Origin: an uncultured Chloroflexia bacterium
Lineage (GTDB): Bacteria > Chloroflexota > Anaerolineae > CG2-30-64-16
DNA: 64,000 nucleotides
Assembly (NCBI GenBank): GCA_963810095.1
Contig: CAWEMM010000002.1
Location: 32,001-96,000, forward strand
Direction of reading: 5' to 3'
The notes beneath the pieces were generated by a model. That model was not told where the DNA came from, did not search any database, and saw only the letters and a program-made list of their open reading frames with translations. The position numbers were made by a program, and so were the translations under genes. Positions within the stretch are counted from its first letter, which is position 1, and each line of letters opens with the position of its first letter. Of the stretch, positions 25,826-54,461 are shown in pieces.

Positions 25826-26030
25826 TGGCTCTCCTTTGAACCTGGAGGTACAAGTACGTTATATCACCGCGGGGCAGGAGCGTCTATGACCTCGCGCAGC
25901 TATGCGGCGGGCCGGCCCAGGCCGCAGGCCGGGGTGGACGAGGCGGATGGATCGGATCAGCGCCGGCAGGAACCGCCACGGTCGGCCGCATCCGCGTTCA
26001 TCTGGGTTGTATTCCGGCGCCGGGCGCCTC

Positions 26031-26051
26031 TGTGCTATACTCGGCCGCATG
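26031..26051 (+). promoter_or_regulatory. Extended -10 promoter, probably leaderless
   Basis: TGTGCTATACT ends 7 nt before ATG 26049; no SD sequence. Confidence 0.6.
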
Positions 26052-29000: not shown

Positions 29001-29514
29001 GCGTGACGCGGGCCGTCGAGCGGGTCTGGCAGTACCTGCAGGCCGAGCGGCCGGGGTTCGAGGCTCGGCACACGTCGACCAACTGCTGCGCCTGGCCGGC
29101 CCCTTCGGTGATGGCCTGCGCGACTTCCTCCTGGCCCTGGTGCTGCGCGCCGAGACCGACGCCTACGATCCCCGGGCCGACCGCGTGACGCTGATGACGC
29201 TGCATGCGGCGAAGGGGCTGGAGTTCCCCGTGGTCTTTATGGTGGGCTGCGAGGAAGGCTTGCTGCCCTACAGTCGCAAGGGCGAAACGCCGGACGTCGA
29301 CGAAGAGCGGCGACTGTTCTACGTGGGCATGACCCGGGCGGAGCAGAAACTGGTGCTTTGCCATGCCCGCAAGCGGTGGCTCTTCGGGCAAGCGATGGAG
29401 AACCCGGCGTCGCGCTTCCTCGACGATATCGAGGCAGCGCTCAAGGTGCTCAAGCAGATGGAGGCGCGGCGCAGAGAGCCCAAAGAGGGGCCTTCACAAC
29501 TGGCGTTGTTCTAG
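26049..29514 (+). CDS. Endonuclease Q-like PHP domain fused to UvrD/PcrA-family helicase (about 6 frameshifts)
   Basis: ADLHIHSHYS, PAHIWTPWF, SNSDAHS, YHLDGHRAC..CPVCG, GYDGEYG; then LNEAQ, AGPGTGKT, TFTNKAA, VDEYQD, GDPDQAIYGFRG, ENYRS, TLHAAKGLEF, EERRLFYVGMTRA. Confidence 0.85.
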
Positions 29515-29602: not shown

Positions 29603-31055
29603 TTATCGCAGGGCCAGCGTGCTCACCGCCTGCTGTACCGCCTGGATGAACGGGAACTGCCAGAAGCCCAGGGCGATCGTTCCCGCTGCGGCCAGGACGA
29701 CCACCGCCCAGACCGGCCAGCCATTTTTGGGCAGGTCCGCGCCGGACGGTCGGGGCTCAGACATGAACATGGAGACGGTGACGCGCAGGTAGTAGAAGGC
29801 GGCGATGGCGCTGTTGATCACCGCGATGATCGCCAGCCAGACCATGCCGGACTGCACGGCCGCGCCGAACACGTACAGCTTGCCGAAGAACCCGGCGAGC
29901 GGCGGGATGCCGGTCAGCGCGAACATGAAGATCGCCATGAGCACGGCCAGCGCCGGCTGCCGGCTCGAAAGGCCCGCCATCCGCTCGATCGACACGTCGT
30001 TTTCCTCACGGCGCTGCACGGCCAGCAGCACCGCAAACGCGCCCAGATTCATGAAGGTGTAGACGAGCAGGTAATAGAGCGAGGCCTGCGCACCCTGTGC
30101 GGTGCCCGTGGCCAGCCCAACGAGAACATAGCCGGCCTGCGCGATGCTGGAATACGCTAGCATGCGCTTGAGGCTGGTCTGCCGCAGCGCGGCCAGGTTG
30201 CCGATTGTCATCGTGAGCACGGCCAACACCGCGAGGCCGATGAGCCAGGGCCGGTCGTAGCTGACAAACGATCCCAGCACGCGGATCAGCGAGGCGAACG
30301 CTGCGGTCTTGGTCGCGACGGACATGAACGCGGTCACGGACGTCGGCGCGCCCTGGTAAACGTCGGGGGTCCACTGGTGGAACGGCACCAGCGCGACCTT
30401 GAAGCCGTAGCCGACCAGCAAGAGCCCGATACCGATCGGCAGCAGCGGCGCAAAGGGCAGGGTCACCGACAAAGGCGCCATACCCTGGCTGATCTGGGTC
30501 AGGTTCGTCGTCCCGGTCGCCCCGTAGATCAGGGCGATGCCATAGAGGAAGAAGCCGCTGGCGAACGCGCCCAGCAGGAAGTATTTCAGCGATGCTTCGG
30601 CCGAGCGGGCGTCGCGCCGGTTGTAGCCGGAAAGGATGTACAGCGCGAGCGAGAAGATCTCCAGGCCGAGGAAGATGATCAGGAAGTCGTTCCCCTTCGC
30701 CATCGCGATCATGCCGGCGCTGGCCAGGAGGATGAGCGCATAGTACGGGCCGGGATGCCGCGTGAAATCTTCGGTGCGCTGGACGGCAAGCAGAATCGCC
30801 AACCCGGCCGCGATCAGACACCGCGGTGGCGGCGAAGAGTCCGAGCTCGTCTGCCAACGACATGCCCTGGAAGTCAGGTGAGGCCGGCCGCACAAGCCAC
30901 ATCTCGGCGCCGGCGGCAATCACTGCCACCAGGCTGAACCAGCCCAGGATGCGCTTGTTCTTGAGGATCACGTCTGCCAGCAGCAGGAGCAGCGATGCCA
31001 CGACCAGGATGACCTGCGGCATGATTGCCAGTATGTTCAACGTAGGAAAGTTCAT
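29603..31055 (-). CDS. nuoN: NADH-quinone oxidoreductase subunit N (frameshift ~30820)
   Basis: EASLKYFLLG, GFKVALVPFHQWTPDVYQGAP, KRMLAYSSI, GIPPLAGFFGK. Confidence 0.92.
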
Positions 31056-31066
31056 CGCACTTGCCC

Positions 31067-32629
31067 CTACTTGTCGATCGTTGTACCGGCGCTCGTCAGG
31101 CCGGCGGGCGCCATGCTCACGGCGGGCGCTCGGCGGTTGACCGCGTCTGCCACCGCTTGAGCCGATGGGTTGATCTTGTCGAAGAACAGGTTCGGGAACA
31201 GGCCGATCACGAAGAACAGGATGATCAGCGGAACAAGCGTGATGACTTCACGCGGCCCCAGGTCGCGCACCTGCTGGTTTTCCGGCTTCGTGACGGGTCC
31301 GTGCAGCATGAGCCGGATGGCCCCCAGGAGGTACCAGGCGGCGACGATGATGCCCAGCGTGCCGAATACCGCAAAGACCGGGTTCGTCTGGAACGCGCCG
31401 AGCAGGATGTTGAACTCGCCGACGAACCCGTTCAGCCCGGGCAGGCCGACCGACGAGAGCGCCACAATGATGAACAGGAACCCGTAGACGGGGATCGTCT
31501 TCCACAAGCCCCCATATTCCGAGAGCAGCCGGGTGTGCCGCCGGTTGTACAGCATGCCGACCATGAGGAACAGGGCGCCGGTGCTCAACCCGTGGTTGAC
31601 CATCTGCAGCGTCGCGCCCGCGATGCCCTGGCTGTTCAGCGCCATAATGCCCAACATGACGAAGCCGAGGTGGGCCACCGACGAATAGGCGACGAGCGAT
31701 TTGACGTCTTTCTGCACGAGCGCCACCAGGCCGCCGTACAGGATGCCCACGATCGCAAGCGCCGCGATCCAAGGCGCAAAGGTTTGCGTGGCATCGGGGA
31801 AGAGCGGCAGGCAGAAGCGCACGAAGCCGTACGTGCCCATCTTCAGCAGGACGGCCGCCAGGATGACTGACCCACCCGTCGGCGCCGCCACGTGTGCGTC
31901 GGGCAGCCAGGTGTGAAACGGGAAGATCGGCACCTTGACCGCGAACGCCAAGGCAAAGGCCAGGAAGAGCCACGTCTGCGCACCGGCCGGGATGCGCTGA
32001 GCCTGGAGCTGCAGCAGGTCGAACGTGCCGCCTTGGGCATAGAGCACCAGGATGGCGACCAGCATCAGCGCGCTGGCGGCGAACGTGTACAGGAAGAACT
32101 TGAGCGCGGCATAGATGCGCCATGACATCGTGCGCCCGAGGAAGGTATACGTGCCGTGTGCGTCGCCCCAGCCGCCAATCAGGAAGTACATGGGGATCAG
32201 CGTGAGCTCCCAGAAGACGTAGAACAACACCAGGTCGAGCGAGACGAACACGCCGATCATCCCCGCTTCGAGCGCCAGGATGAGGAACAGGTAGGTTTTG
32301 ACCTGTTTGTCGACGCCTTCCCACGAGAAGAGGATGACCAAGGCCGTGATGAGCGTGGTCAGCAGCACGAGAAACAGGCTCAGTCCGTCGACGCCGACGA
32401 AATACTGGATGTTGAACTGGGGCACCCAGGGCAGCCGTTCGACAAACTGCATGCCCGGCTCGCCCGTCTTCCACCATGCAAAGAGCAAGCAGGATACGGC
32501 GAACGTGAGCAGGCTGACTGCCAGCGCAAACCATTTAGGCGCGCGCTTGCCGGGCAGGAGCAGCAGCACCAGCCCGCCCACCAGTGGGAGGAAGGTGATA
32601 ATGGATAGCAACGGGATATTGAGGTTCAT
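31067..32629 (-). CDS. nuoM: NADH-quinone oxidoreductase subunit M
   Basis: GVDGLS, FYVFWE, KVPIFPFHTWLPDAH, LLKMGTYG, GLPGLNGFVGE. Confidence 0.96.
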   Translation of the reverse strand: MNLNIPLLSIITFLPLVGGLVLLLLPGKRAPKWFALAVSLLTFAVSCLLFAWWKTGEPGMQFVERLPWVPQFNIQYFVGVDGLSLFLVLLTTLITALVILFSWEGVDKQVKTYLFLILALEAGMIGVFVSLDLVLFYVFWELTLIPMYFLIGGWGDAHGTYTFLGRTMSWRIYAALKFFLYTFAASALMLVAILVLYAQGGTFDLLQLQAQRIPAGAQTWLFLAFALAFAVKVPIFPFHTWLPDAHVAAPTGGSVILAAVLLKMGTYGFVRFCLPLFPDATQTFAPWIAALAIVGILYGGLVALVQKDVKSLVAYSSVAHLGFVMLGIMALNSQGIAGATLQMVNHGLSTGALFLMVGMLYNRRHTRLLSEYGGLWKTIPVYGFLFIIVALSSVGLPGLNGFVGEFNILLGAFQTNPVFAVFGTLGIIVAAWYLLGAIRLMLHGPVTKPENQQVRDLGPREVITLVPLIILFFVIGLFPNLFFDKINPSAQAVADAVNRRAPAVSMAPAGLTSAGTTIDK

Positions 32630-37139: not shown

Positions 37140-39876
37140 CTACTCCGACGCCAAGCTGGCGAGTGGTGCGTGGTCGGCCGCTGTCACAGCGGGTGAAAGG
37201 GCTACGGAGACGCTCTCTCCGCGGCCGGCGCCGAGGGTTTCTGCGGGAAGCCCGGGCAACCCGAACGGGATCCAGGCCGTACCCGCCTGCACGGAAGCAT
37301 CGGCGCGCAGCGCAACGCTGACGCTGCCCAGCGCGGAGGTGATCGTCACCTGGCTGCCTTCAGCCAACCGCACTGCAGCGAGGTCACCCGGGTTCAGGGC
37401 CACGAACGGCGCCGGCAGCCGGTCACGCAGCTGGGCTGCGGCGTGCTGCATGAGCGTTCCGCCGTCCCACAGCCACGGACCGCCGGTTAGTGTGAACTGC
37501 CCGGCTGGCGCGGCTGCGACCGGCTGCACGTCGAGCGGCTCGAACCGCCGCGGGGGGCGAACCAGCGCGCTCGCCGGCCATTGCAGGCCCTGATCGGTCA
37601 GGTTCTCCCAACGCAGCGCGCCGTAGACGGGCACGGCCTTGCTGATCTCTTCCAGCACGGCCTGGGCCGTCTGGTAGCTCCACGGCTTCGGCGCGGGCGC
37701 GCCCTTGGCGGCCGTTCGCGCGCGTTTCTTGCGCTTCCAGTCGGGCACACCGTCGGCCGGAGCCTGCGGACAGCGTGCGCCGTGGCCTGCACGGCGATCC
37801 AGCGCTCCGCGAGCAGCGTCATCACGGCCCAGCCGGGCAGGGAGTTCTGGATCGAATCGATGGCGTCGGGCGCGCGCTGCACCCTTCGCTCGAGGTTGGT
37901 ATACGTGCCGTTCGTCTCGGCCCAGGTCGTTGCGGGCAGGACGACGTGCGCCAGTTTCGCGGTCTCGGTGAGGAACAGGTCTTGCACGACGAGAAAGTCG
38001 AGCTGACGCAACGCCTCGGCCGTCTTCGGCGACGCTGCCGGGTCGGCTTCCATTACGAACAGCCCGCGCACGCCGCCGTCCAGCATCTGCTGGTACGTCT
38101 GGCCCGGCTCGGCCGGCGGCTGCACGCCCCACAGCTTGCCCAAGCCGGTCGCGCACGCCGGCCTCGCCCACCGGCAGGTGGCCCGGCAAGCTATCGGCCA
38201 CGACGCCCATGTCGCGCAGGCCCTGCCCGTTCGCCTCGTGCCCGACGTAGGCGAGCTTGTCGCCCGCGCCGAGCAGCACCGCCACGTTACCCAGGGCCGC
38301 CAGGGTTTGCCGGCCGCGCTCGCCCCGGGCCGCGTCGGGCCCGTAGATGAAGAGCGGCGCCTTGGCGGCGAGCAAGGTATCGACCGCCGCGGCGATGTCG
38401 GGCCGTGGCGCGCAGCGTCAGCGCCACCGCGCCCGCGGGCTGAGCCGGCCGGCTCGTCGCGGCGGGCTGGGGTCTAGGTCCGCGGGCCGCGCCCGGCTCG
38501 GGCTTCTGAGCCTGTGCCTGGCTGGCTTTCTTCGTCTGCAGGGCCGCGGCCAGCTCGCTCAACGCCAGTGCTTCGTCGCCGGGCCGGGCTGAGATGAAAA
38601 CGCTGCCGCTCACCCGCGGGTCGTCGACATAGCGTGCCGCCTCGATCTTGCGAGGGTTGATGATGACCAGTTTCGCGCTCTTGCGGCGCACCGCCCGCTT
38701 GATATGCAGATCGAGCACCGGTGCGGCCTCGCTGGGGTCGAACCCTACGAGCACAATCACGTCGCTCTTGGCGATGTCGGCGATGGCGGGCAGCCCGGTT
38801 GGCAGCGCCGCCACCGACGCGCCCTCGGAGAAGTCCACGTTGTTCGTGCCCACGAGGGTGCGGAAGAATTTCTGGAGCAGGTAGCCCGACTCGTTCGAGA
38901 CGCGGCCGGCCGCAATGCCGCCTACGGCGTTGGGCCCCTTCTGTTCTGCGAGCGCTTCAAAGCCTTCGACGACTGCCGCAATCGCTTCCTGCCAGGTGGC
39001 CTCGCGCAGTTGGCCGCCTTGCCGGATCATCGGCGACTTCAGGCGCCCCGGATGGTCCACGTGCTGGTGCAGGAACCGGCCCTTGTCGCAGATCCACTCG
39101 TCGTTGACGGCCATGTTCTCGCGTGCGACGATCCGGCGCAGCGTGTGCACACGTTCGTCAAGCCGTACGTTGCAGCCGACCGGGCAGTGCGTGCAGACAC
39201 TTGGCGTCCGGCGCAGCTCCCACGGCCGGTAGCGGAAACGGGCCACCCGGTTGGTCAGCGCGCCCACGGGGCAGATGTCGATGATGCTGCCCGACGTCTT
39301 CGCATCGACCGGCTTGCCGGGGAACACGTCGATGATCGTCTCGCCCCCGCGCTCGAACAGGCCGATCTGGGGCTTATCTTCCCACTCTTCCAGGTAACGG
39401 ATGCAGCGCCAGCACAGAATGCAGCGCTCCTGGTCCAACATGATCAGGTCGCTGATCGGGTAGTGCTTCTGCTTGCGCCGCTTGACCTCTACGAACTTGC
39501 TCGCGCCGGGACCGTACTCCATCGTATTGTCCTGTAGCGGGCACTCGCCGCCCTTGTCGCAAATGGGGCAGTCGAGCGGGTGATTGATCAGGATGAAGCC
39601 CAGCACGGCTTCGCGCGCCTGCTGGACCTGCTCGCTGTCCGTCCGGACCGCCATCCCCTCGTTGACGCGCACGGTGCAGGCGGTGTCGAGGCGGCTGCCG
39701 CGCGGGCCCGGAAACTCGACCAGGCACATGCGGCACGCACCGAGCGGGTCCAGCTTAGGATGCGAGCAGAAGATCGGGATGTCGACGCCGGCGGCTTTGG
39801 CCGCGTCGATCACCAGCGTCCCTGCCGGGACCTGGACCTTGATGTCATTGATGGTCACGTTGACCAAATCAGCCAT
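37140..39876 (-). CDS. nuoG: NADH-quinone oxidoreductase subunit G (frameshifts ~38400, ~38140, ~37760)
   Basis: IPIFCSHP..GACRMCLVE, NHPLDCPICDKGGECPLQ, RCILCWRC, CPVGAL, N7 motif CTHCPVGC...ICDKGRF; molybdopterin-oxidoreductase-like C-terminal part. Confidence 0.9.
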
Positions 39877-39916: not shown

Positions 39917-40318
39917 CTAGTACGGTTGAATCACCTGTAAGCCGGAAACCGGTTCGAAATGACGCACGTTGCGCGTGTACACGACGAGGTCATGTTCGAT
40001 AGCCGTAGCCGCGATGAGGGCGTCCGGTATGGCAAGGCCGTGGCCCAGGAACAGCGCCTCGATGAGACGGTATGCGGTCTGAGATGCCGGGCCACTAACC
40101 GGCAGCACCATCACCTCATTCAGCATCCGTTGAACCTGGCGCAACTCGCCCGTAGCGCGGCATCCCCGGATGAGCTCCATGGCGGAAATGATGCTGATGC
40201 GGACGGCATCGGCAGCATATCGCTCGGTCAGGAACTGCTTTGCTTCTGCGACGCCACGGGCGCTGTCTACCAGGACGTCAGTGTCGATCAGTCCTGCCGG
40301 TCTGAGCGTGTCTCCCAT
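39917..40318 (-). CDS. vapC: PIN-domain VapC-family toxin
   Basis: LIDTDVLVD, SAMEL..G, IPDALIAATA, TRNVRHF. Confidence 0.88.
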   Translation of the reverse strand: MGDTLRPAGLIDTDVLVDSARGVAEAKQFLTERYAADAVRISIISAMELIRGCRATGELRQVQRMLNEVMVLPVSGPASQTAYRLIEALFLGHGLAIPDALIAATAIEHDLVVYTRNVRHFEPVSGLQVIQPY

Positions 40319-40548
40319 TTGACTCTTTCCTCGCGAACCCATGCCGCCCCGTCGCGCATATCGGTTCGATCGGCCCACATGCCGAAGAACGCCAGATTTG
40401 AGAACGCCTCGCCGGCTTCGCGCTGAGATCGCTCTGCATCTTCGACCGTTTCGACCCGCACGTAAACCTCAGTGCCGTCCGGATAACCCAGGTTCTTCGG
40501 AAAGATGATGCTCTTGCCTTTGATCTTCCCTCGCTCTATCGCCGTCAT
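40288..40548 (-). CDS. Putative antitoxin, overlapping the PIN gene
   Basis: 86 aa; beta-rich N-terminus 'GKIKGKSIIF..YPDGTEVYVRV', C-terminal 'FFGMWADRTDM...WVREER' typical of PIN-associated antitoxins. Confidence 0.75.
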   Translation of the reverse strand: MTAIERGKIKGKSIIFPKNLGYPDGTEVYVRVETVEDAERSQREAGEAFSNLAFFGMWADRTDMRDGAAWVREERVKWETRSDRQD

Positions 40549-40580: not shown

Positions 40581-42521
40581 TTATCGCTTCACCGTCGGCT
40601 GGTTGAACTTCTCTTCCTGGGGCAGCGCCGGCGACGTCACGCCCGACGGCACGCCGGGATCGGGCCGGTAGACCGGCCGGATCGGGATGACGGGCTGCTG
40701 GTGGGCGCCGGCAATCGCCTGTTCGAACTCGGGCCGGAACTTGGCCAGGTTACTCTGCAGGCCCCAGACCGCCGCGAACGAGAACGGGCAGAAGCTCTTG
40801 CCGGCGATCATATCCGCGATGTAGAGCATCAGCCCGATGTCGTCGGTCTTGCCCTCGCCGCGCTCCACCCGCTCCAGGATATCCTCCAGCCAGCCCGTGC
40901 CCTCGCGACACGGCGTGCACTTGCCGCAGCTCTCTTCCCGGTAGAACGACAAGGTCCGCCGGGCCACTTCCACCATGCTCTGGTTCTTGCCGATGACGAT
41001 GACCGCGGCCGCGCCCAGGCTCGAGCCCTGCTTGGCGACGGCGTCGAAGTCCATCGGCGTATCGATCTGGTTCTCGTCAAGCAACTGCATGGACAGGCCA
41101 CCCGGCACCACCGCCTTCAGGCCCTCGGCCTCATCCGTCAGGCCACCGCCCCACTCGTAAATCAGCTCGCGCAGTGTGACGCCGTGCGGCAGTTCATACA
41201 GGCCGGGCTTCTGCACCTGTCCGCTCACGCAGTAGATGCGGAAGCCGGTGCTGTTGGGGGTGCCCCACTGCTTGTACCAGTCCGCGCCGCTCTTCAGCAC
41301 GTGCGGCACGTTGCTGATGGTCTCGACGTTGTTGACGATGGTCGGCTTGCTGTACAGGCCGGCGACCGCGGGGAAGGGCGGCTTGAGCCGCGGATGGCCG
41401 CGGTAGCCTTCGAGCGAGGTCAACTCCGCGGTCTCTTCGCCGCACTCGTATGCGCCCGCGCCCCGGTGCACCACGATCTTGAGCTTCTTTCCGGTCCCGC
41501 CCGCGCCGCGGTCGGCGAATAGGTTGTCGCCCAGGATGCCGCGGGCCTCGGCCTCCGCGATGGCGCCCATCAGGCGCTCGGCCGCAAAGTAATACTCGCC
41601 GCGCACGTAGATGAACGCGCGCTCGGCCTCGATCGCATAGCACGCCAGGATGATCCCCTCGAGGAGCTGGTGGGGGTCGTATTCCATGATCATGCGGTCT
41701 TTGAACGTGCCCGGCTCGGACTCGTCCGCGTTGACGACCAGGTAGCGGGGGTACACGCCCTGCGGGATGAAGCTCCACTTTTGCCCTGCGGAGAAGCCGG
41801 CGCCGCCGCGCCCGCGCACGTTCGCCGCCTTCATCTCGTCGATGACCTGGGCCGGCGTCTTGCCGCCGCTGAGCACCGCCCGAGCGGTCTCGTAGCCGCC
41901 GTCCTCGAGGTAGGAGTCGAGCGTGTGCGAGTTCGGTTTGTCCACCCGCCCCAGCAGGAAGTTCGTGTCGGGCCGGCCACCATGCCGGTAGGGACCGGTG
42001 GGCCAGCGCTCCGTCGTGTCAAACCCCTGGCCCGAGCCGATCAGCGCCAGCGCCTCGTCCAGCTTTTCGGGCGTGTCCAGTTCCTCGAAGTACCGGATCT
42101 TCTGCGTCTTCTTCTCGGTGCACATGAACATGGGCGCGGTCGCGCAGGCGCCCAGGCATTCGACGTGGCCTAGCGTGAACTTGCCGTCCGGGGTGGTTTC
42201 CCCGAAGGGAATCCCGAGCCGCTCCTCGAGCATCTTCGTGAGCTTGCTCGACCCGCGCAGCATGCACGGGACGTTGTCGCAGACTTCGATCGTGTATTCG
42301 CCCGGCTCGTGATGGACGTTATACATATGGTAGAAGCTGGCGAATTCGCCCACTTCCGCCTCGTCCAGCCCAAAGAGCGCGCCCACCTCGGCCATGACCC
42401 CCGACGGCAGCCAGCCGTTCTCCCGCTGGGCGACGTAAAGTGCCGGCCCCAGCGCGGAGCGGGGAACGGGATAACGGGCCTGAAGCGCCCGGATTTCAGC
42501 AATAGCGTTTTCCGATAGCAC
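40581..42521 (-). CDS. nuoEF: Fused NADH-quinone oxidoreductase subunits E and F
   Basis: NuoE CDNVPC...CLGAC in frame with NuoF RGRGGAGF, NADESEPGT, GAGAYECGEE, ESCGKCTPCREG. Confidence 0.93.
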   Translation of the reverse strand: MLSENAIAEIRALQARYPVPRSALGPALYVAQRENGWLPSGVMAEVGALFGLDEAEVGEFASFYHMYNVHHEPGEYTIEVCDNVPCMLRGSSKLTKMLEERLGIPFGETTPDGKFTLGHVECLGACATAPMFMCTEKKTQKIRYFEELDTPEKLDEALALIGSGQGFDTTERWPTGPYRHGGRPDTNFLLGRVDKPNSHTLDSYLEDGGYETARAVLSGGKTPAQVIDEMKAANVRGRGGAGFSAGQKWSFIPQGVYPRYLVVNADESEPGTFKDRMIMEYDPHQLLEGIILACYAIEAERAFIYVRGEYYFAAERLMGAIAEAEARGILGDNLFADRGAGGTGKKLKIVVHRGAGAYECGEETAELTSLEGYRGHPRLKPPFPAVAGLYSKPTIVNNVETISNVPHVLKSGADWYKQWGTPNSTGFRIYCVSGQVQKPGLYELPHGVTLRELIYEWGGGLTDEAEGLKAVVPGGLSMQLLDENQIDTPMDFDAVAKQGSSLGAAAVIVIGKNQSMVEVARRTLSFYREESCGKCTPCREGTGWLEDILERVERGEGKTDDIGLMLYIADMIAGKSFCPFSFAAVWGLQSNLAKFRPEFEQAIAGAHQQPVIPIRPVYRPDPGVPSGVTSPALPQEEKFNQPTVKR

Positions 42522-42638: not shown

Positions 42639-44450
<1,812 letters not shown>

Positions 44451-45438: not shown

Positions 45439-45540
45439 GACGGACTCCGCAAAAATCGGATTGCTCGACAACCACCTCAGCCGGCAGCGCGCGGGTCATG
45501 CCGGCGTCAACGACTCAACCCGGCGGGCGCGCGTTGGCGA

Positions 45541-45570
45541 AGTCTATCACGAACGGCGTTTCGTTGTCAA
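45541..45570 (-). promoter_or_regulatory. Promoter for the complete nuo operon
   Basis: Minus strand TTGACA, 18-nt spacer, TGa-TAGACT. Confidence 0.65.
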
Positions 45571-45615
45571 AAGAGTCCCGCAAAAGCCCCCTCCGTTGAT
45601 ACCAAAGGCCACATT

Positions 45616-45752
45616 TTGTGTGTGACGTCCGGTACAGTATAATGGCGCAGGCCGCAGCGGCCCGGATCCCTCTGGGAGCCGCGCGGATACATTCACTGAA
45701 TCGCTGGCTTTGCGTTCTATATGCCGTCGTGCTACAATGCCGCGGCATTGTA
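45616..45752 (+). promoter_or_regulatory. Candidate promoters and palindromic operator for the second nuo operon
   Basis: TTGTGT-16-TATAAT (45616-45643); TTGCGT-17-TACAAT (45710-45738); perfect palindrome TACAATGCCGCGGCATTGTA (45733-45752). Confidence 0.55.
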
Positions 45753-45910
45753 CGATGCTGTGGCATCTAGGGGTGCCGAAGTATCATCTGATGCGGTTGC
45801 ATTGCACCGGGGTTTCTCCTAAAACCTCTTCCCGGCGCGACTACTGATAGAACGGCCATCACCGCAGCGCTCCCGTAGCTGGGCGCGCGCGGCCCAAAGG
45901 AGGGTTGACC

Positions 45911-46267
45911 GTGCTCTCGCAGTACGCTTTTATCGCCATTTTCGCTGTTATCGCCTTCGCGCTGCCCGTCATTGGCCTCGTCATGTCCTGGCTGATCCGC
46001 CCCAAAAAGCCCAATCCCGCAAAGAACGCTACTTACGAATGCGGCATGGAAACCATCGGCGACACCTGGGTCCAGTTTAAGGCGCAGTATTATCTTTACG
46101 CGCTCGTCTTTGTCGTCTTTGACGTCGAAGCGATTTTCGTCTTTCCCTGGGCGGTTGCCTACAACAAGCTCGGGTTGTACGCGCTGGTGGAGATGGTGCT
46201 CTTCGTCGCGATTCTGCTTGGCGGCCTGCTCTATGCGTGGCAGAAGAAAGCGCTGGAGTGGCATTGA
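45911..46267 (+). CDS. nuoA: NADH-quinone oxidoreductase subunit A (second copy)
   Basis: [29 protein letters not shown]; GGGAGG RBS before GTG. Confidence 0.94.
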
Positions 46268-46268
46268 T

Positions 46269-47451
46269 ATGAACTACATCCTGGACTTCTTTGTGAATCT
46301 CGGCAATTCGTGGACGGCCTGGCTGAGCACGTTTCTGCCTGCCTGGGGCGTGACCGCGGTCAACTATCTGCTCGTGGGCATCATCCTGGTGATGATGCCG
46401 GTGATTGCGACCCTCACACTGACGTGGATGGAGCGCAAGGTTATCGGCCGGATTCAGAACCGGATTGGACCCAACCGCGTGGGCCCGTGGGGCATCTTCC
46501 AGGCCATCGCCGACGCGGTCAAGATGCTCGATTAAGGAAGACATCGTACCCTCCGGGGCCGATCGTCCCGTGTTCAACCTGTCGCCTATCCTGATCGCCG
46601 GCGCGGCCGCGCTGCTCTGGGCCGTCATCCCGTTCGGCAAGGGCATGATCGGGCAGGACTTGAACGTGGGCGTGCTCTACCTGGTCGCCATCGGCTCGAT
46701 CACGACCGTTTCAGTCGTGATGGCAGGCTGGGCGTCCAACAACAAGTTCGCGCTGATCGGTGCATTCCGCGTCGTGGCGCAACTGCTGAGCTACGAAGTG
46801 CCGATGATCCTGTCGATCGCCACCGTCGTGCTGTTAGCCGGCACAATGAGCACGATGGGCATCGTGGAGGCGCAGCAAGTGCCCTTCATCTTCGTCCTGC
46901 CCATGGCCGCCCTCGCGTACTTCGTCGCCGGCTCGGCCGAGGTGGGCCGCGCGCCCTTCGATTTGCTCGAAGCGGACTCGGAAATCGTCGCGGGCTATTT
47001 CATCGAGTACAGCGGCCTCAAGTTCGGCTGGTTCTACATCGCCGAGTACGGCAACCTCTTCGCGATCTCGGCCATCACGGCCACCCTGTTCCTGGGCGGT
47101 TGGCGTGGCCCCTTCGCCCACGAGGCGCCGGTGCTGGGTCCCGTTTACTTCATTCTGAAAACCTTGCTGGTCGTCTTCCTGCTCATGTGGATTCGCGGCA
47201 CGTGGCCCCGGTTCCGCATCGACCAGATGCTGGCGTTTGCCTGGAAGGTTCTCGTGCCCGCGTCCCTGGCGAACCTGCTCTGGGTGGCAATCGTCCTGAA
47301 GCTGCCCGTGCCGACGTTCGCGCAGTGGGTCCTGGTGTTAGGCGGCAACCTGATCATTCTGGCCGTGGCTGCAACCATGCTCGGCCGGGCCGCCAGGCGT
47401 TACGCTGACCAGCACAAAGTCGCCACCGCATCTGCGGCGGCGTCTGCCTGA
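46269..47451 (+). CDS. nuoH: NADH-quinone oxidoreductase subunit H (second copy, frameshift ~46530)
   Basis: [54 protein letters not shown]. Confidence 0.92.
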
Positions 47452-47602
47452 CATTCCGTACAGCAGCGCGGCGCCCACCCAGGCCTGCGCGGGCGCGAGT
47501 CGTTGACCACGCTAGCCTTTGCCTGCGCTGCTGTGTCTCTTGACCGCCTATTCCGCCAATCCGTCGCTGAACGGGAACGCACTCATGCAAGGGGTTGCAG
47601 CC

Positions 47603-48094
47603 ATGCAACAGGTCATGTTCTTTGTCCTCAGCGCAGTTACGCTGATCTCCGGTGCCCTGGTGGTCACCACGCGCAGCCTCTTCCGCTCCGCGCTCTGGCT
47701 CGTCCTGGCCTTCTTCGGCATCGCGGGGCTGTTCATCCTCCTCAACGCCGAGTTTCTGGCCGTTGCGCAGGTGCTCATCTACGTTGGCGCAATCTCGACC
47801 CTGATCATTTTCGCGATCATGCTGAGCCGCGGCGTCATGGACCCCGACGCCCGGCGCTTCAACAGCCAGTGGGGGCTCGTCGCGGGCTTCGGCGCAGTGT
47901 TCTTCGTGCTCCTGGCCGCCATCCTCACCCGCGTGCAGTGGCCCATCACGATGGGTGCGGTGCCCCCCGATGCCATCCAGCAGCTGGGTTCTGACTTCGT
48001 GGGGCCTTTTGTGGTCCCCTTCGAAGTGGCGTCGGTATTACTCGTCGTCGCCATGATTGGCGCCATCATCATCGCGCGTGAGCGGGAGAACTAG
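47603..48094 (+). CDS. nuoJ: NADH-quinone oxidoreductase subunit J (second copy)
   Basis: [25 protein letters not shown]. Confidence 0.93.
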
Positions 48095-48095
48095 C

Positions 48096-48419
48096 ATGGT
48101 TCCACTCACCTGGTACCTCCTTGTTGCGGCCGCGCTGTTCTGCATCGGTGCGTTCGGCGCGCTCGCCCGGCGCAATGCCGTGGCCGTCCTGATGGGCATC
48201 GAGCTGATGCTCAACGCGGTCAACATTAACCTGGTTGCCTTCTGGCGCTATGTCAGCGCGGGGGCGAGCGCGGCCGCGAACATGACGGGGCAGTTGTTCG
48301 CCATCTTCGTCATCACCGTTGCGGCGGCAGAAGCTGCGGTTGGCCTGGCGCTGATCATCGCGATCTACCGCCAACGCAGCACCGTCGTCGTCGAAGACAT
48401 CGACACGATGAAGGGATAG
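48096..48419 (+). CDS. nuoK: NADH-quinone oxidoreductase subunit K (second copy)
   Basis: RRNA...[21 protein letters not shown]. Confidence 0.95.
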
Positions 48420-48423
48420 CGGC

Positions 48424-50722
48424 ATGAGCGAAGCCACCACCTACCCGGCCGTCTTCAACCTGACGCCGATCATCCCGTTCCTGCCGCTCGCGGCCTTCGT
48501 GCTCATCGTGCTCTGGGCCAATCGCAGCAAGAAGCTCAGCGCCGCACTCGCGATTGCAGGCATCGCGCTCTCCTGGGTCATTAGTTGGGCGGTTGCCTTC
48601 ACCACCTTCGGGATGGAGCGGTTCGGCGAGAACCCCGTCACATTCGTCGCGCAACTGGCTGCCCACGGGCTCGACCTGGCAGGCGTTCGGCTTCCGGGTC
48701 GATCCGCTTTCTGCCGCCATGCTCTTCATGGTTCCGTTCGTTTGCTTCCTTATTTTTGTGTACGCAGTCGGCTACATGGGTGTGGGCAAAGAGGAGAGCG
48801 CAATTGAGGCCGGTGGGCACGACGAGCGCGGCAAGCCGGCCGAGCCCGGCCATGTCGACCGCCTCGCCAGTCGCTTCTTCGCCTACATCGCCCTCTTCGC
48901 ATCGGGCATGCTCGGCTTTGTCCTCTCCGACAACTGGGTCATGGCGTTCATCTTTTGGGAACTCATGGGCCTTTGCTCGTACCTCCTGATTGGCTTCTGG
49001 TTCGCCCGCAAGTATCCGAACCCGAAACAGATTACGCCCAAGGAGGCCGGGCTGAAGGCTTTCCTGACCACCCGGGTCGGCGACACGATCATGCTGGTCG
49101 GGTTCCTGATCCTCTTCGGCATCACCGGCTCGATCACGTTCTCTCAGATCCTGTCGCCCCAGACGCTGGAGCAGCTGACGACCCTGACGTTCAACCTGCC
49201 GGTCTTCGGCCCGGTCCCGGCGGCGACCGTCATCGCGATCCTGATCTTCTTCGGCGCCATCGGTAAGAGCGCCCAATTCCCCCTGCACGTCTGGCTGCCC
49301 GACGCGATGGAGGGCCCGACGCCCGTTTCCGCCCTGATCCACGCGGCCACCATGGTGTCGGCGGGCGTGTACCTGATCATTCGCCTCTTCCCGCTCATGG
49401 CGGCCGTGGAGCACGGCGGGGCGCTGCGCTTCATCGGCTTCATCGGCTCGTTCACCGCGCTGTTTGCGGCCACGATCGCCGTGGCGCAGAACGACATCAA
49501 GAAGGTGCTGGCGTACTCCACCATTTCCCAGCTCGGGTTTATGTTTGCCGCACTTGGCATCGGCGCGTACGTCGCCGCGACCTTCCACCTGCTGATGCAC
49601 GCCTTCTTCAAGGCCCTGCTGTTCCTCGGCTCGGGCAGCGTGATTCACGGCATGGAGCATGGACACCACGAGGCCGCGCACGTTCACACCCCCGCGGTGG
49701 CGCACGCGGACGAAGTGAGCAGCATCGCTCGTGACTCGCACACGGCGGAGACCAGCCCGCGCGAGGAGCACGGCTTCGATCCGCAGGACATGCGCAACAT
49801 GGGCGGCCTGTTCCGACGGATGCCCCGCACGGCCTGGACCTTCATTATCGGCGGCCTGGCGCTCAGTGGATTCCCGCTTGTGACTGCGGGCTTCTGGAGC
49901 AAGGACGAAATCCTGGCGGATGCTTGGTACAACCAGCACCACGTGGTCTTCTTCGTGCTGGCCCTGGCCGCGCTGCTCACCGCGTTCTACACCGGGCGCC
50001 AGATCATGATGACGTTCTTCGGCAAGCCGCGCACCGAGGCCGCGATGCACGCCTCGGAGCACGACAGCATCTTTGCCTGGATGACCATTCCGCTCATGGT
50101 GCTGGCCGTCTTCGCCGTTGTTGCGGGTTGGGTGGGTATCCCGACCACCTTCCCGGCGCTGGGCGCCCTGTCCACCAATCCCTTCCACGAATACATTGGC
50201 GGCCTCGCCGAGGCGCTCCACGTGGAGGCCGCGGAACTGCCGTTTACACCCGTGCCGCTCGTGACGTCGATGATTGTGGCGCTGGGCGGCCTGCTGCTCG
50301 GCTACCTGGTGTACCGGGGCTACGCGGCGAGGGCGCAGAGCGAGACCCGTGACCCGCTCTCCCGGCCGCTCGGCGGGCTGTACCGTGTGCTGCAGAACAA
50401 GTACTACGTGGACGAGCTTTATTACAAGGTGTTCGTGCGGGGCACTCAGCGGCTGTCCAACTGGCTCTTCAAGTTCGACGATGCGTGGGTAATCGACCCG
50501 ATCGTCGACGGGGTGGGCAAGGTGGGCCGGCGGCTTTCAGAGGCGGGTCACTGGTTCGATGTGCACGTCGTGGACGCCATCGTGAACGGCATCGGCAAGG
50601 CGGCCGACGCCTTCGGCGGCGCCCTGCGAGCCCTGCAAACCGGCCGGGCGCAGAACTACCTGTTTACGATCCTGGTCGTGTTGTCGGTAGCGCTGGGCTT
50701 GTACCTGCTGCTGCCCAAGTGA
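48424..50722 (+). CDS. nuoL: NADH-quinone oxidoreductase subunit L (second copy, extended helix HL, frameshift ~48650)
   Basis: FWELMGLCSY, GKSAQFPLHVWLPDAMEGPTP, HAFFKALLF, KYYVDELY...LQTG. Confidence 0.93.
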
Positions 50723-50782
50723 TTTCGACCTTACGTTATTCCGTTCGATCTTATCGCAACCGGTCCATCGGAGGGCTCTTTG

Positions 50783-52366
50783 ATGAATAACCTGCTGCTG
50801 ACCATTATTACCTTCGTCCCGCTTGTCGGCGCCATCCTCGTGCTGCTGCCGTGGGGTAGATGGTTCAGGCTAGACAAGGCGCGCGAGGAAAGGCTGATCA
50901 AGACGGGCGCGATCGCGATCAGCACGCTGCCCTTGGGCCTCGCGATCATGCTGTGGTTCGCCTACGATCGGGCGGCCGGCGGCATGCAGTTCCAGGCGAT
51001 GGTGCCGTGGATTCCGGCGATCAACGTGAGCTTCCACGTCGGCGTGGATGGCTTGAGCGTCCCGTTTATCTTTCTGACGACGTTCCTGACCACCCTCGGC
51101 CTGTGGTACTCGGCGCGCACGATCAAGGTGCGCGTGCGGGAATTCTTCTTCCTTTTCCTGCTGCTCGAAATGGGCATGTTGGGCGTCTTCATCTCGCTCG
51201 ACCTCGTGCTCTTCTACGTGTTCTGGGAGATCGGCCTCGTCCCGATGTACTTCCTGATCGGCATCTGGGGGCAGGCGAAGGACCGGCCGCAGTATTCGGC
51301 GATCAAGTTCTTCCTCTATACCATGGCCGGTTCGGTCTTCATGCTGCTGGCAATCCTGGCGATCTACTTTGCCACCGGCAGCTTCGACCTCCTCGTGGCG
51401 CAACGGGTGCATCCCTACGCGAATAATGCCCTGTTATCCGGCTTGTTTTTCTTCGCCTTCTTCCTGGCGTTTGCGATCAAGGTCCCGAGTTGGCCGTTCC
51501 ACACCTGGCTGCCCGACGCGCACACTGCCGCGCCCACCGCTGGCTCTGTCATCCTGGCCGGCATCCTGTTGAAGCTTGGCGCGTACGGCATCATCCGCAT
51601 CGCGCTGCCGGTCTTTCCGACCGCGGCCAACCGGTTCGCCGTGGTGCTCGTCGCGCTCGGCGTGATCTCAATCATCTACGGCGCGCTCGTGTCGATGGCC
51701 CAATGGGATCTAAAACGCCTGATCGCGTACTCTTCTGTGAGCCACATGGGGTACATCCTGCTCGGTGTGGGCGCGGCTGCCTACATGTTCGGGCGGCCCG
51801 AGTATATCGATGCGGGCGCGATGGCGCTGAGCGGCGCCACCTTGCAGATGTTTACGCACGGGCTCAGCACCGGCGCCTTGTTCTTCCTCGTCGGCGTGAT
51901 CTACGAACGCTCGCACGTGCGTGACTTGAAAATGTTCGGCGGCCTGAGCAGCAAGCTCCCGTACTACTACGGCCTTTTCGCTCTCGCAGCCTTCACATCG
52001 CTCGGGCTGCCCGGCCTGGCCGGCTTCTGGAGCGAGCTCTTCGTCTTCCGAGGCGTGTTCGCGGTGCCGGCGCTGGCCATCTGGGCGGTGATCGGCGTGA
52101 TCGGCATCGTCCTGACCGCGGCGTACATCCTCTGGAAGATCGTGCAGTACACCTTCCTGGGCCAGTATGATCCGCACAAGATCGCGCACTGGACCGACGT
52201 GGAGACCGGCGCCGAGCTGCACGAGCCCAAGGACATGGCGCTGTTCGAGAAGATCACGCTGTGGCCCCTGGCGATCTTTATGATCCTCTTCGGCGTGGCC
52301 CCGGCCCTGATCCTGACGTTCTTCAACGGAACGTTCACGACCTTCATGACCTCGCTCGCCAGGTGA
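50783..52366 (+). CDS. nuoM: NADH-quinone oxidoreductase subunit M (second copy)
   Basis: GVDGLS, FYVFWE, KVPSWPFHTWLPDAH, LLKLGAYG, GLPGLAGFWSE. Confidence 0.95.
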   Translation: MNNLLLTIITFVPLVGAILVLLPWGRWFRLDKAREERLIKTGAIAISTLPLGLAIMLWFAYDRAAGGMQFQAMVPWIPAINVSFHVGVDGLSVPFIFLTTFLTTLGLWYSARTIKVRVREFFFLFLLLEMGMLGVFISLDLVLFYVFWEIGLVPMYFLIGIWGQAKDRPQYSAIKFFLYTMAGSVFMLLAILAIYFATGSFDLLVAQRVHPYANNALLSGLFFFAFFLAFAIKVPSWPFHTWLPDAHTAAPTAGSVILAGILLKLGAYGIIRIALPVFPTAANRFAVVLVALGVISIIYGALVSMAQWDLKRLIAYSSVSHMGYILLGVGAAAYMFGRPEYIDAGAMALSGATLQMFTHGLSTGALFFLVGVIYERSHVRDLKMFGGLSSKLPYYYGLFALAAFTSLGLPGLAGFWSELFVFRGVFAVPALAIWAVIGVIGIVLTAAYILWKIVQYTFLGQYDPHKIAHWTDVETGAELHEPKDMALFEKITLWPLAIFMILFGVAPALILTFFNGTFTTFMTSLAR

Positions 52367-52390
52367 TGATCCAGGACGGGAGGCAGACTC

Positions 52391-53902
52391 TTGAAACTCT
52401 CTGACATTACCTACCTGCTGCCCGAGCTGGTGCTCCTCGTGGGCGCGGCGTTGGTCTTCCTGCTCGACATCCTTTGGCTGCGCCCCAAGATGTCTGGCGA
52501 CCCGAGATCGCAGGACCGGCGTTTCTCCTGGCTGCCCGGCATCGCAATTGTCGTGTTGCTCGTGGCGGCGGTGGCCATTATTCCCAGCCAGGCGCGTCCG
52601 GCCACCATCGTGGCGACGATGCTCACGATCGACGGGTTTGCCCTGTTCTTCAAGGCGCTGGCGCTCATGGGCGTTGGCCTCGTGATCCTGACCGCGATGC
52701 CCTATCTCAAGGGCCGCACGCCGTTCGGCGGCGAGTTCTACGCGCTCCTGCTGATCACCGCACTGGCGATTTGCCTGGCCGTTTCCGCCAACAACCTGAT
52801 CATGATCTACCTGGCGATGGAGTTCCTCAGCATAACGAGCTACGTGCTGGCGGGCTACCTGCGCAACGATCGGAAGTCGGGCGAGGCGGCGCTGAAGTAC
52901 TTCCTCTACGGCGCGACTGCGTCGGGTGTGATGCTCTACGGCATGTCGCTGCTCTATGGCGCGACGGGCACCACCGTGCTGTCGGAATTGGCGCAGGTTC
53001 TCTCGGCCCGGCCACAAGGCGACCTGGTGTATCTGATCGTGCCCGCCATCGTCATGCTGCTGGCCGGTTTCGGCTTCAAGGCCAGCCTGGTGCCCTTCCA
53101 TCAGTGGGCGCCCGATACGTACGAAGGTGCGCCAACGCCCATCACCGCGTTCCTTTCGACCGCTTCCAAGGCCACCGGGTTCGCGATCCTGATGCGGGTT
53201 TTCGTCACTGCGTTTGGGTTCCTGCCGGTTGCAGGGCAGTGGGTCACCATCCTGGTCGGGATTTCGGTCCTGACGATGACCCTCGGCAACCTGACCGCCC
53301 TGCGGCAGACCAATATCAAACGGCTGCTGGCCTACTCGTCTATCGCACAGGCCGGCTACATGCTGATTGGCGTCGCGGCCGTGGCCGTTACGCCCGGACT
53401 GACTTTCAACGGCATCAACGGCGTGCTCCTCTACCTGTTCGCCTACCTGTTCACCAATCTGGGTGCGTTCGCGGTGGTCATCGCCATCGAGACCAGCACG
53501 GGCAAGGTCGAGCTGAAGGACTACAGCGGGATGGTGCGCCGCTCGCCGTGGTTGGCCGTGCTCCTGGCCATCTTCCTGTTGTCGCTCGCGGGCATTCCGC
53601 CCACGGGCGGCTTCCTGGGTAAGCTCTACGTGTTTGGTGCGGCCGTGTACCGGGAGATGTGGGTGCTTCTGGCCATTGCAGCGATCAACACCGTCATCGC
53701 GGCGTTTTACTACCTGAATATCGTCCGTTACATGTTCTTCGTGCCCAGCGAAGAGCCTGTCGAACGCGTCCCCGTCGCGCCGGCCTTCGGGGCCGTCCTG
53801 GCGATCACTGCCACTGTGACCCTGGCGCTCGGCATCGTGCCGGGGCCGTTCATTGCGTGGGCGTCAGTCTCGGCACGCTCCCTGCTATCCGTACTTAGGT
53901 AG
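52391..53902 (+). CDS. nuoN: NADH-quinone oxidoreductase subunit N (second copy)
   Basis: TTG start with GGAGG RBS; EAALKYFLYG, GFKASLVPFHQWAPDTYEGAP, GIPPTGGFLGK. Confidence 0.95.
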   Translation: MKLSDITYLLPELVLLVGAALVFLLDILWLRPKMSGDPRSQDRRFSWLPGIAIVVLLVAAVAIIPSQARPATIVATMLTIDGFALFFKALALMGVGLVILTAMPYLKGRTPFGGEFYALLLITALAICLAVSANNLIMIYLAMEFLSITSYVLAGYLRNDRKSGEAALKYFLYGATASGVMLYGMSLLYGATGTTVLSELAQVLSARPQGDLVYLIVPAIVMLLAGFGFKASLVPFHQWAPDTYEGAPTPITAFLSTASKATGFAILMRVFVTAFGFLPVAGQWVTILVGISVLTMTLGNLTALRQTNIKRLLAYSSIAQAGYMLIGVAAVAVTPGLTFNGINGVLLYLFAYLFTNLGAFAVVIAIETSTGKVELKDYSGMVRRSPWLAVLLAIFLLSLAGIPPTGGFLGKLYVFGAAVYREMWVLLAIAAINTVIAAFYYLNIVRYMFFVPSEEPVERVPVAPAFGAVLAITATVTLALGIVPGPFIAWASVSARSLLSVLR

Positions 53903-53918
53903 ACGTTCCGGAGCCGGT

Positions 53919-54461
53919 GTGAACGACGACAAACCGGTCAGACAAAAGCACAGACATCAGCGGGAACCGATTCGTACGGTTCCCGCCTGGCGCAAGTATG
54001 GCGTTGAGCTGGCCGGTCTTGTCGTGGTCGGGGTGGGCCTGTTCCTGGTGCTCGAGCGGATGACCCTGCGCGAGACGCTCTCCACCTGGTTTCGTGACAC
54101 GGCTCGTTCGCTCATGGGCCGGTTCCAGCAGGCCGGCAGCGCCTTCGACGCGTTTCTCGACCAGGTCTCGGTTTCGGATGTCGTCGGCTTCACCCTGATC
54201 GTGGGCGCGCTGGCCGCGATCCTGCTGCGGATTCGCTGGCGCCTGCTGAACAATCCGAAGCTCACGGCCGTGGTGTGTCCCAAGTGCGGGGGCGTGATCC
54301 ACCGGGCTCATCGCACCAAGACCGACCACGTGGTCGCAGCGTTTGTGCCGGTCCGCCGCTACCGCTGCGCGAGTATCAGTTGCGGATGGCGCGGGCTGCG
54401 GGTGGGTGAACAACACGGGTCGTCACATCACCACGCGCGACCCTCAAACGTAGGAGAGTAG
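53919..54461 (+). CDS. Hypothetical membrane protein with C-terminal zinc ribbon
   Basis: Two TM segments, CPKC...RYRCASISCGW; GGAG before GTG 53919. Confidence 0.7.
   Translation: MNDDKPVRQKHRHQREPIRTVPAWRKYGVELAGLVVVGVGLFLVLERMTLRETLSTWFRDTARSLMGRFQQAGSAFDAFLDQVSVSDVVGFTLIVGALAAILLRIRWRLLNNPKLTAVVCPKCGGVIHRAHRTKTDHVVAAFVPVRRYRCASISCGWRGLRVGEQHGSSHHHARPSNVGE

Follow-up and report, generated by a model that had tools for sequence, protein, structure and literature searches.

Does a lengthened helix HL in NuoL betray an additional antiporter-like subunit in complex I? The question is raised by a stretch of 64,000 nucleotides (nt) of DNA from an uncultured Chloroflexia bacterium, hereafter the window, which covers positions 32001-96000 of contig C2 in genome G000 (6.13 megabases in 16 contigs, 88.5 % complete). 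Two nuo operons lie head to head in the window, and the second of these, operon 2, encodes a NuoL (NuoL2) whose transverse helix HL is longer than that of its counterpart NuoL1 in operon 1, next to one nuoM gene. A sequence-only reading of the window had taken the extra length to be a tandem repeat within HL and the signature of 2M complex I, the type with a second nuoM, and had proposed a fourth antiporter-like subunit not encoded in cis, which could be a second copy of NuoM2 or NuoM1 recruited from the divergent operon 1. We compared NuoL2 and its operon with 80 related loci (L001-L080), which were fetched with NuoL2 as bait. These comparisons lead us to a simpler answer, namely that NuoL2 probably belongs to an old and widespread lineage with three HL modules instead of two, and that operon 2, with its one nuoM, would encode a three-pump enzyme with no hidden fourth pump implied.

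The extra module in helix HL of NuoL2

As the sequence-only reading had it, the segment from the KYY motif to the LQ(S/T)G motif is 26 amino acids (aa) longer in NuoL2 than in NuoL1 (82 versus 56 aa; nt 50399-50644). Comparison with cyanobacterial NdhF1 (6hum_F) using phmmer left residues 260-286 of the query (nt 49700-50719) unaligned, which corresponds to a 27-aa insert in HL at about nt 50477-50557. We also aligned 77 NuoL rows with MAFFT, comprising 75 of the 80 fetched loci and both window copies; L016, L032, L036, L040 and L054 were left out of the counts, their NuoL frames being cut by a contig end or shorter than 560 aa after trimming. Across this alignment the segment from KYY to QTG falls into three length classes, of 55-56, 80-85 and 104-108 aa.

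The two repeat units of NuoL2 begin at nt 50474 and 50555. From this gene alone the tandem repeat cannot be substantiated: no DNA-level repeat was found between the HL units of nuoL2, their ungapped nucleotide identity is 25/81, and the best protein register (9/27 identities at offset 26) was reached by 18 of 200 shuffles. At the level of profiles built from the 65 long-HL rows, by contrast, the repeat holds, as hhalign aligns module 2 with module 3 over 26 columns with a probability of 97.5 % (E-value 7e-12), and finds module 1 unrelated to modules 2 and 3 (2.5 % and 0.3 %). On these profile comparisons, the extra 26-27 residues of NuoL2 are an ancient duplicate of the last helix-HL module.

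AlphaFold2 modelling (76-row alignment; mean predicted local distance difference test score, pLDDT, 89.8) rendered residues 574-652 of the 680-aa NuoL2 query as one unbroken helix of 79 residues (nt 50399-50635), whereas the HL helix of NuoL1, modelled with the same rows as a control, has 53 residues (554-606). Since the modelled helix is continuous and longer than that of NuoL1, the insertion appears to be helical rather than a loop outside HL, in agreement with the earlier placement of the extension within HL. The NuoL2 model matches the NuoL chains of solved complex I structures with VIA-align Z scores of 42-44 at 39-48 % identity.

One further argument, that superposition reveals a displacement of the last helix by one subunit width, was considered and rejected. 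Rigid fits of NuoL2, with a root-mean-square deviation (rmsd) of 2-4 Å, stop at residues 601-621, and rows carried through the last helix have an rmsd of about 11 Å; but the model of canonical NuoL1 shows the same behaviour, with rigid fits that stop at 575-583 and last-helix rows at 7-10 Å. Because this control behaves alike, the superposition argument on the place of the last helix is void, and, judging by the two models, monomer predictions do not put the distal strap where the complex has it.

Two relatives with still longer HL segments were also encountered. In L035 (10001-11923), which lies in a one-nuoM operon, the segment has 104 aa, and the extra length is a polar stretch near the start of HL without any repeat unit. 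L013 (1852-6872) encodes a NuoL whose HL segment has four modules (108 aa, three FD/D..VID-type units), followed by one nuoM of the L-proximal type (Ma) and one of the N-proximal type (Mb); it has no nuoN, and ATP synthase genes come next on the opposite strand. In the L013 lineage, HL is again longer than the nuoM count would predict.

nuoM number in operon 2 and in related loci

The gap between nuoL2 and nuoM2 measures 57 nt, and 1669 nt separate the end of nuoL2 from the start of nuoN2. The corresponding distance is 1511-1978 nt in 33 of 38 one-nuoM loci, which leaves room for one gene, and 3038-4672 nt in the 24 two-nuoM loci. Two of the five one-nuoM exceptions with a longer distance hold a DUF3800 or a GmrSD gene rather than a gene for a membrane protein; the other loci with a longer distance are L048, L052 and L064. 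The DUF3800 gene lies between nuoL and nuoM in the closest relative, L001 (12079-12693), and the GmrSD-type restriction endonuclease gene lies between nuoM and nuoN in L079 (6894-8954), from a Chitinophagaceae metagenome-assembled genome (MAG). Seven Chloroflexota loci of other assemblies (L001, L005, L006, L007, L022, L030 and L034) have the same single-nuoM L-M-N order, L001 being 74 % identical. In line with the earlier count of nuoM genes, operon 2 truly contains one nuoM.

The assembly as a whole looks prone to small insertions and deletions (indels). Five window genes run in two or more frames: a UvrD-like helicase gene (25902-29514), nuoN1 (29603-31055), nuoG1 (37140-39876), nuoH2 (46269-47451) and nuoL2 (48424-50722). 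In nuoL2 at least, the split is an assembly error and not gene decay, because the one surplus base at 48646/48647 that divides the frames is absent from the contigs of three runs and the upstream frame matches the NuoL N-terminus of L001 (58 % identity over the N-terminal 71 aa). At 51488-51493 in nuoM2, contigs of four runs have one base added after 51488 and one missing at 51492/51493; this compensating indel pair, which changes 1-2 residues, is either a local assembly error or a strain difference. Public runs contain at most 0.25 of the sampled words and yielded only short contigs. A check of read support at the junctions, as the sequence-only reading had proposed, was therefore successful in part: a 151-nt contig of short-read run X1 spans the nuoL2/nuoM2 junction with no difference, whereas the nuoM2/nuoN2 junction (52366-52391) is bridged by none of the listed short-read contig pieces. 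A joint in X3 from 51910 to 52920 was disregarded, as one of its sides has 22 letters and was flagged unreliable.

We then asked how HL length relates to nuoM number among the relatives. Of the 54 long-HL operons whose contig also carries nuoN, 30 contain one nuoM and 24 contain two, a ratio that, because NuoL2 was the bait, shows the one-nuoM long-HL state to be common and old, not how common it is. The 30 one-nuoM operons come from Chloroflexota, Ignavibacteriota, Bacteroidota, Balneolota, Calditrichota, Zixibacteria, Omnitrophota, Planctomycetota, Bacillota and Actinomycetota (phyla as labelled in the records). Conversely, a long HL is present in all 26 two-nuoM rows, and two nuoM genes occur in none of the 10 short-HL rows, which matches the account of Chadwick et al. 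(2018) given in papers that cite it. The earlier equation of a long HL with 2M complex I thus stands in one direction, as every two-nuoM row has the long form, but fails in the other, as the majority of the 54 long-HL operons have one nuoM. Since the same length occurs with single-nuoM operons in many phyla, HL length alone is no guide to pump number, and we consider a long HL likely to be the trait of a lineage, not a count of pump subunits.

A search for a further nuoM elsewhere gave a concordant picture. Nine PF00361 genes were identified in the window's own genome, namely L1, M1, N1, L2, M2, N2, an MrpA-like gene, an MrpD-like gene and one divergent gene, and no further nuoM, nor any of Mb type, was found among the PF00361 genes of this genome as assembled. 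The Mrp cluster (MrpA-, MrpC- and MrpD-like) lies on C8. Of the genomes with a long-HL, one-nuoM operon, the complete chromosome of L022 has two L-M-N sets and one divergent gene of the same kind, and the complete Zixibacteria chromosome of L051 has two L-M-N sets only; neither of these two complete chromosomes holds an orphan nuoM. The genome of L062 (G008, 5.6 megabases), which has a long-HL operon, encodes one L, one M, one N and no other member of the family. Borrowing of a NuoM from another operon is thus not a general requirement of a long HL, as the L062 genome has no second L-M-N set to borrow from. The divergent PF00361 protein of G000 (474 aa; C6:380386-381807) is encoded beside an HMG-CoA reductase gene, and proteins of this kind (about 475-500 aa, 65-74 bits) occur in four Chloroflexota genomes: G000, G001 (C1:279072), G003 (C54:282710) and G005 (C201:9247).

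The phylogenetic trees bear on the history of the two NuoM types (support values in brackets). The NuoM tree unites the L-proximal first NuoM (Ma) of all 2M operons in a clade of 30 rows (98), and places the N-proximal second NuoM (Mb) of all 2M operons in a clade of 34 rows (100), along with the sole NuoM from short-HL operons of Bacillota and Verrucomicrobiota. Because of this grouping of Mb, the added pump looks imported from canonical complex I rather than duplicated in place. NuoM2 is found in an 11-row clade (98) of sole NuoMs from one-nuoM Chloroflexota operons, sister to the Ma clade, and NuoM1 groups with the sole NuoM of the short-HL operons L076 and L075 (97), outside the Mb clade.

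A concatenated tree of NuoA, H, J, K and N contains a 28-row Anaerolineae-type clade (100/99), within which an 8-row one-nuoM group (83/79), with path lengths of up to about 1 change per column, holds the window operon. Its sister is a 20-row 2M clade (100/100), made up of 18 two-nuoM rows plus L004 and L021, in which the contig breaks off behind the first nuoM. The window operon thus lies outside the 2M clade, and nothing points to a recent nuoM loss. The Chloroflexus-type and Acidobacteriota/Verrucomicrobiota 2M operons lie outside the 28-row clade, in an unresolved fork with a one-nuoM Omnitrophota operon, and with this open fork the common ancestor may have had either one or two nuoM genes. 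In the NuoL tree, which was built without the HL columns, the 6-row clade of the window is supported (95), and one-nuoM and 2M Chloroflexota rows are interleaved. The NuoM tree and the concatenated tree disagree on whether all 2M operons form one clade: the former has a single Ma clade (98), whereas the latter places Anaerolineae 2M operons with one-nuoM Anaerolineae operons, away from those of Chloroflexus and Acidobacteriota (100/99). This conflict may mean either that the NuoM pair moved between operons or that Ma converged after the arrival of Mb.

Three pumps or four

In the explanation that we favour, the last HL module was duplicated long ago, and the resulting lineage now occurs in both one-nuoM and two-nuoM operons. 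Operon 2 and the unlinked nuoB2, nuoCD2 and nuoI2 genes on C6 would most likely build an 11-subunit complex-I-type enzyme that lacks NuoEFG and has three antiporter-like subunits, L2, M2 and N2, as its predicted pumps. The extra module would add about 39 Å of strap (26 residues at a rise of 1.5 Å), and our leading guess is that this strap passes NuoN and continues over the NuoK/J/A bundle, or is accommodated in some other way, with no fourth pump needed.

The most consequential alternative is a hidden four-pump enzyme in which NuoM2 is used twice (L2-M2-M2-N2) and HL acts as a molecular ruler, a scheme that would extend to long-HL enzymes with one nuoM in Ignavibacteriota, Bacteroidota, Zixibacteria and other groups. 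It draws on an HL that is one full module longer, by some 39 Å on helix geometry, and is modelled as straight and continuous, and on the fact that all 26 two-nuoM rows belong to the same HL length class as NuoL2. Yet the two NuoMs of every 2M operon examined are deeply diverged paralogues in separate clades (98 for Ma, 100 for Mb), which argues that the two positions need different proteins, and double use would have to hold for 30 operons from about ten phyla. To our knowledge, there is no case in which one gene product fills two unlike positions in the complex I arm. We therefore regard this scheme as unlikely, and do not discount it further because HL length tracks pumps, because the last module, the turn after it and the final helix are alike in short and long forms, and because the motif of the middle module is kept. 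Were it true, counting genes would miss an entire class of five-proton complex I. In a milder version of the idea, the strap would lead past NuoN over NuoK/J/A towards NuoH, in a membrane-arm architecture seen in no solved structure. That operon 2 forms a four-pump enzyme by borrowing NuoM1 from operon 1, as had been suggested for this locus, seems to us very improbable. The head-to-head arrangement, which is kept in L006 and L016, makes co-expression of the two operons plausible, but NuoM1 groups with the sole NuoMs of L075 and L076 instead of the Mb clade, and the L062 genome combines a long-HL operon with no second L-M-N set. More generally, the proposal of a fourth antiporter-like subunit encoded elsewhere finds no support in the 30 of 54 long-HL operons with one nuoM, in the L062 genome, in the two complete chromosomes or in the window's own genome.

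A different kind of alternative bears solely on history and would be consistent with a present-day enzyme of three pumps: a 2M ancestor of the one-nuoM Chloroflexota group may have lost Mb, so that the long HL is a relic. The position of the Chloroflexus and Acidobacteriota/Verrucomicrobiota 2M operons outside the 28-row clade, in the open fork with one-nuoM Omnitrophota, makes a 2M ancestor possible, and the interleaving of one-nuoM and 2M Chloroflexota rows in the NuoL tree points the same way. Against this, the first NuoMs of all 2M operons form one clade without the window's group, as would be expected if the gain happened once, later than the split; in our sample, long-HL operons with one nuoM have a far broader distribution than 2M operons, which makes it more likely that the long HL came first; and the one-nuoM state is old, as the 8 rows reach about 1 change per column. 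We consider the relic scenario possible but rather doubtful. The single nuoM could finally be an artefact, a second copy having been collapsed or dropped between nuoL2 and nuoN2 by an assembly that is error-prone, splits several window genes into two frames, has a surplus base in nuoL2 and is unbridged by the contig pieces at the nuoM2/nuoN2 junction. This we hold to be so improbable as to be negligible, since errors of one base would not remove 1.5 kb, Ma and Mb differ too much to be collapsed (those of L013 are 54 % and 40 % identical to NuoM2, respectively), the nuoL2/nuoM2 junction is bridged by an independent contig, and the seven related loci of other assemblies have the same single nuoM. 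The loss of a gene in assembly, which the sequence-only reading had itself named as a way in which its proposal could fail, is accordingly not what the data indicate.

Several observations nevertheless weigh against the three-pump explanation. In those parts of the review PMC8165549 that deal with it, HL length is said to follow the number of antiporter-like subunits spanned across complex I, MBH, MBS and Mrp; a long HL with one nuoM breaks this general rule and for that reason needs a structural explanation. In one-nuoM operons of different phyla, the FD..(I/V)DG.VNG motif of the middle HL module is conserved; this module is thus under constraint and presumably touches something specific. Short-HL and long-HL rows closely resemble each other in the last module and in the turn (QTG..Q.Y) that leads into the final helix, a likeness that would fit the same docking site at NuoN, two modules then covering one NuoM. 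No solved chain with the long-HL insert was present among 35 sequence matches, our literature searches yielded no published structure of any 2M or long-HL complex I, and PMC8357420 holds nothing on where the last helix docks. In addition, the loci were baited with NuoL2, so that 30 of 54 is not a population frequency, the window's own genome is only 88.5 % complete, and the NuoM:NuoL stoichiometry is not readable from DNA.

We note that a long HL has been used in the literature as supporting evidence for an extra NuoM built into 2M complex I. As operon 2 and its 29 companions combine this helix length with a single nuoM in many phyla, genomes should not be read for pump number or H+/e- stoichiometry by HL length alone. 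The findings further suggest that the lengthening of the strap probably came first, in enzymes with three pumps, and that some lineages acquired a second NuoM afterwards.

Genomic setting and comparison with known systems

Operon 1 occupies the minus strand from 45471 down to 29603 and encodes a full 14-subunit set in the order nuoA, nuoB, fused nuoCD, fused nuoEF, a PIN-domain gene, nuoG, nuoH, nuoI, nuoJ, nuoK, nuoL1, nuoM1 and nuoN1. The fused nuoCD gene (42639-44450, minus strand) has 603 aa, the fused nuoEF gene (40581-42521, minus strand) joins 2Fe-2S thioredoxin-like, 51K and SLBB domains in one 646-aa frame, and the PIN-domain gene between nuoEF and nuoG (PF01850, E-value 1.6e-11) lies at 39917-40378 on the minus strand. 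The two operons are separated by 434 nt (45472-45904). Operon 2 (45905-53902, plus strand) encodes membrane subunits only, as nuoA2-H2-J2-K2-L2-M2-N2, and the coordinates of its genes and of the HL modules are given below.

Table. Features of the two nuo operons that bear on the NuoL2 question, with the evidence for each assignment.
Feature	Position (nt)	Strand	Evidence
nuoA2, first gene of operon 2	45905..46267	+	PF00507, E 1.5e-38
nuoH2, in two frames (46269-46532 and 46465-47451), apparent frameshift at about 46520-46535	46269..47451	+	PF00146 profile positions 5-53 and 53-298, one per frame
nuoJ2	47519..48094	+	PF00499, E 2.7e-37
nuoK2, frame as listed, real start probably further in	48057..48419	+	PF00420, E 2.2e-28
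nuoL2, N-terminus in frame 1 from 48424, remainder in frame of ORF 48554-50722	48424..50722	+	PF00361, PF00662, PF01010
nuoM2, sole nuoM of operon 2, L-proximal (Ma) type	50783..52366	+	PF00361, E 1.5e-74
nuoN2, last gene of operon 2	52391..53902	+	PF00361, E 1.4e-76
nuoL1 of operon 1, canonical 56-aa HL segment	32678..34576	-	AlphaFold2 HL helix 554-606, 53 aa
nuoM1 of operon 1	31067..32629	-	NuoM tree: with sole NuoM of short-HL operons
Helix HL segment of NuoL2, KYY to QTG, 82 aa	50399..50644	+	Length comparison with NuoL1; AlphaFold2 continuous helix
HL module 1, 25 aa, no homology to modules 2 and 3	50399..50473	+	hhalign 2.5 % and 0.3 %
HL module 2, 27 aa, the extra module	50474..50554	+	Gap against 6hum_F; absent in 10 short-HL rows; hhalign to module 3
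HL module 3, 30 aa up to QTG, counterpart of the single FD..VVDG.VNG module of canonical NuoL	50555..50644	+	Alignment, phmmer, hhalign
Last transmembrane helix of NuoL2	50648..50710	+	AlphaFold2 helix, residues 657-677 of the 680-aa query

The assignment of nuoL2 follows from its position between nuoK and nuoM, as for NuoL, and from its domain matches (E-values of 1.4e-74 for PF00361, 7.7e-13 for PF00662 and 7.7e-06 for PF01010, the last at 26.1 bits, just below the 26.8-bit cut-off). Its closest NuoL relatives come from Anaerolineae and Caldilineaceae MAGs, and its last transmembrane helix is the one that we take to be TM16 in the usual numbering. Directly after nuoN2, a 202-aa frame (53853-54461, plus strand) has two hydrophobic stretches and a weak zinc-ribbon match under the cut-off (PF12760, E-value 6e-4). 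The genes nuoB2, fused nuoCD2 (a 553-aa frame) and nuoI2 are unlinked to operon 2 and lie together at G000:C6:1556474-1560056. The nuoI2 frame (G000:C6:1558671-1560056; L083:4672-6057) is open over 462 aa, with a two-ferredoxin core at residues 129-229 followed by a long C-terminal extension; in the 2M loci L037-L039, too, the frames for NuoI are long, at 358-402 aa.

How does this operon compare with systems already described? NuoL2 shares the fold of canonical NuoL, Nqo12 and ND5 (3RKO, 4HE8, 7Z7S, 8E9G, 6HUM) and the order of transmembrane helix 15 (TM15), HL and TM16, and differs in an HL helix that is 26 residues longer (79 versus 53 in the NuoL1 model). Its nearest relatives in the NuoL, NuoM and NuoA+H+J+K+N trees are the 2M complexes of Chloroflexi. 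According to passages of PMC9040806, PMC6606698 and PMC7117926 that report Chadwick, Hemp, Fischer and Orphan (2018), 2M complex I combines a second nuoM with a lengthened HL, and a paraphrase of the same work in PMC7117926 describes the Chloroflexi layout as having nuoBCDI apart from the operon and a fused nuoCD. Operon 2 matches this type in its HL length class (a segment of 80-85 aa) and in its A-H-J-K-L..N layout, with nuoB, fused nuoCD and nuoI elsewhere, but neither the operon nor the genome as assembled contains the defining second nuoM, of Mb type and adjoining nuoN.

The combination of a long HL with a single nuoM has a closer parallel in Manganitrophaceae. Yu, Chadwick, Lingappa and Leadbetter (2022; PMC9040806) describe a three-pump Complex_I_1 and Complex_I_2 whose NuoL has an HL insertion of about 26 aa, and in the passages concerned the authors call the insertion curious and leave its meaning open. 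Compared with these enzymes by description, no Manganitrophaceae locus being among the 80, operon 2 differs in its phylum (Chloroflexota versus Nitrospirota), in having no nuoB, nuoC, nuoD or nuoI in cis and in being sister to a 2M clade. It resembles them in an HL insertion of about 26 aa that accompanies a single nuoM and a single nuoN. As far as those passages of PMC9040806 go, a long HL with three pumps is thus already in print for Manganitrophaceae, and operon 2 and 29 companion loci share the combination.

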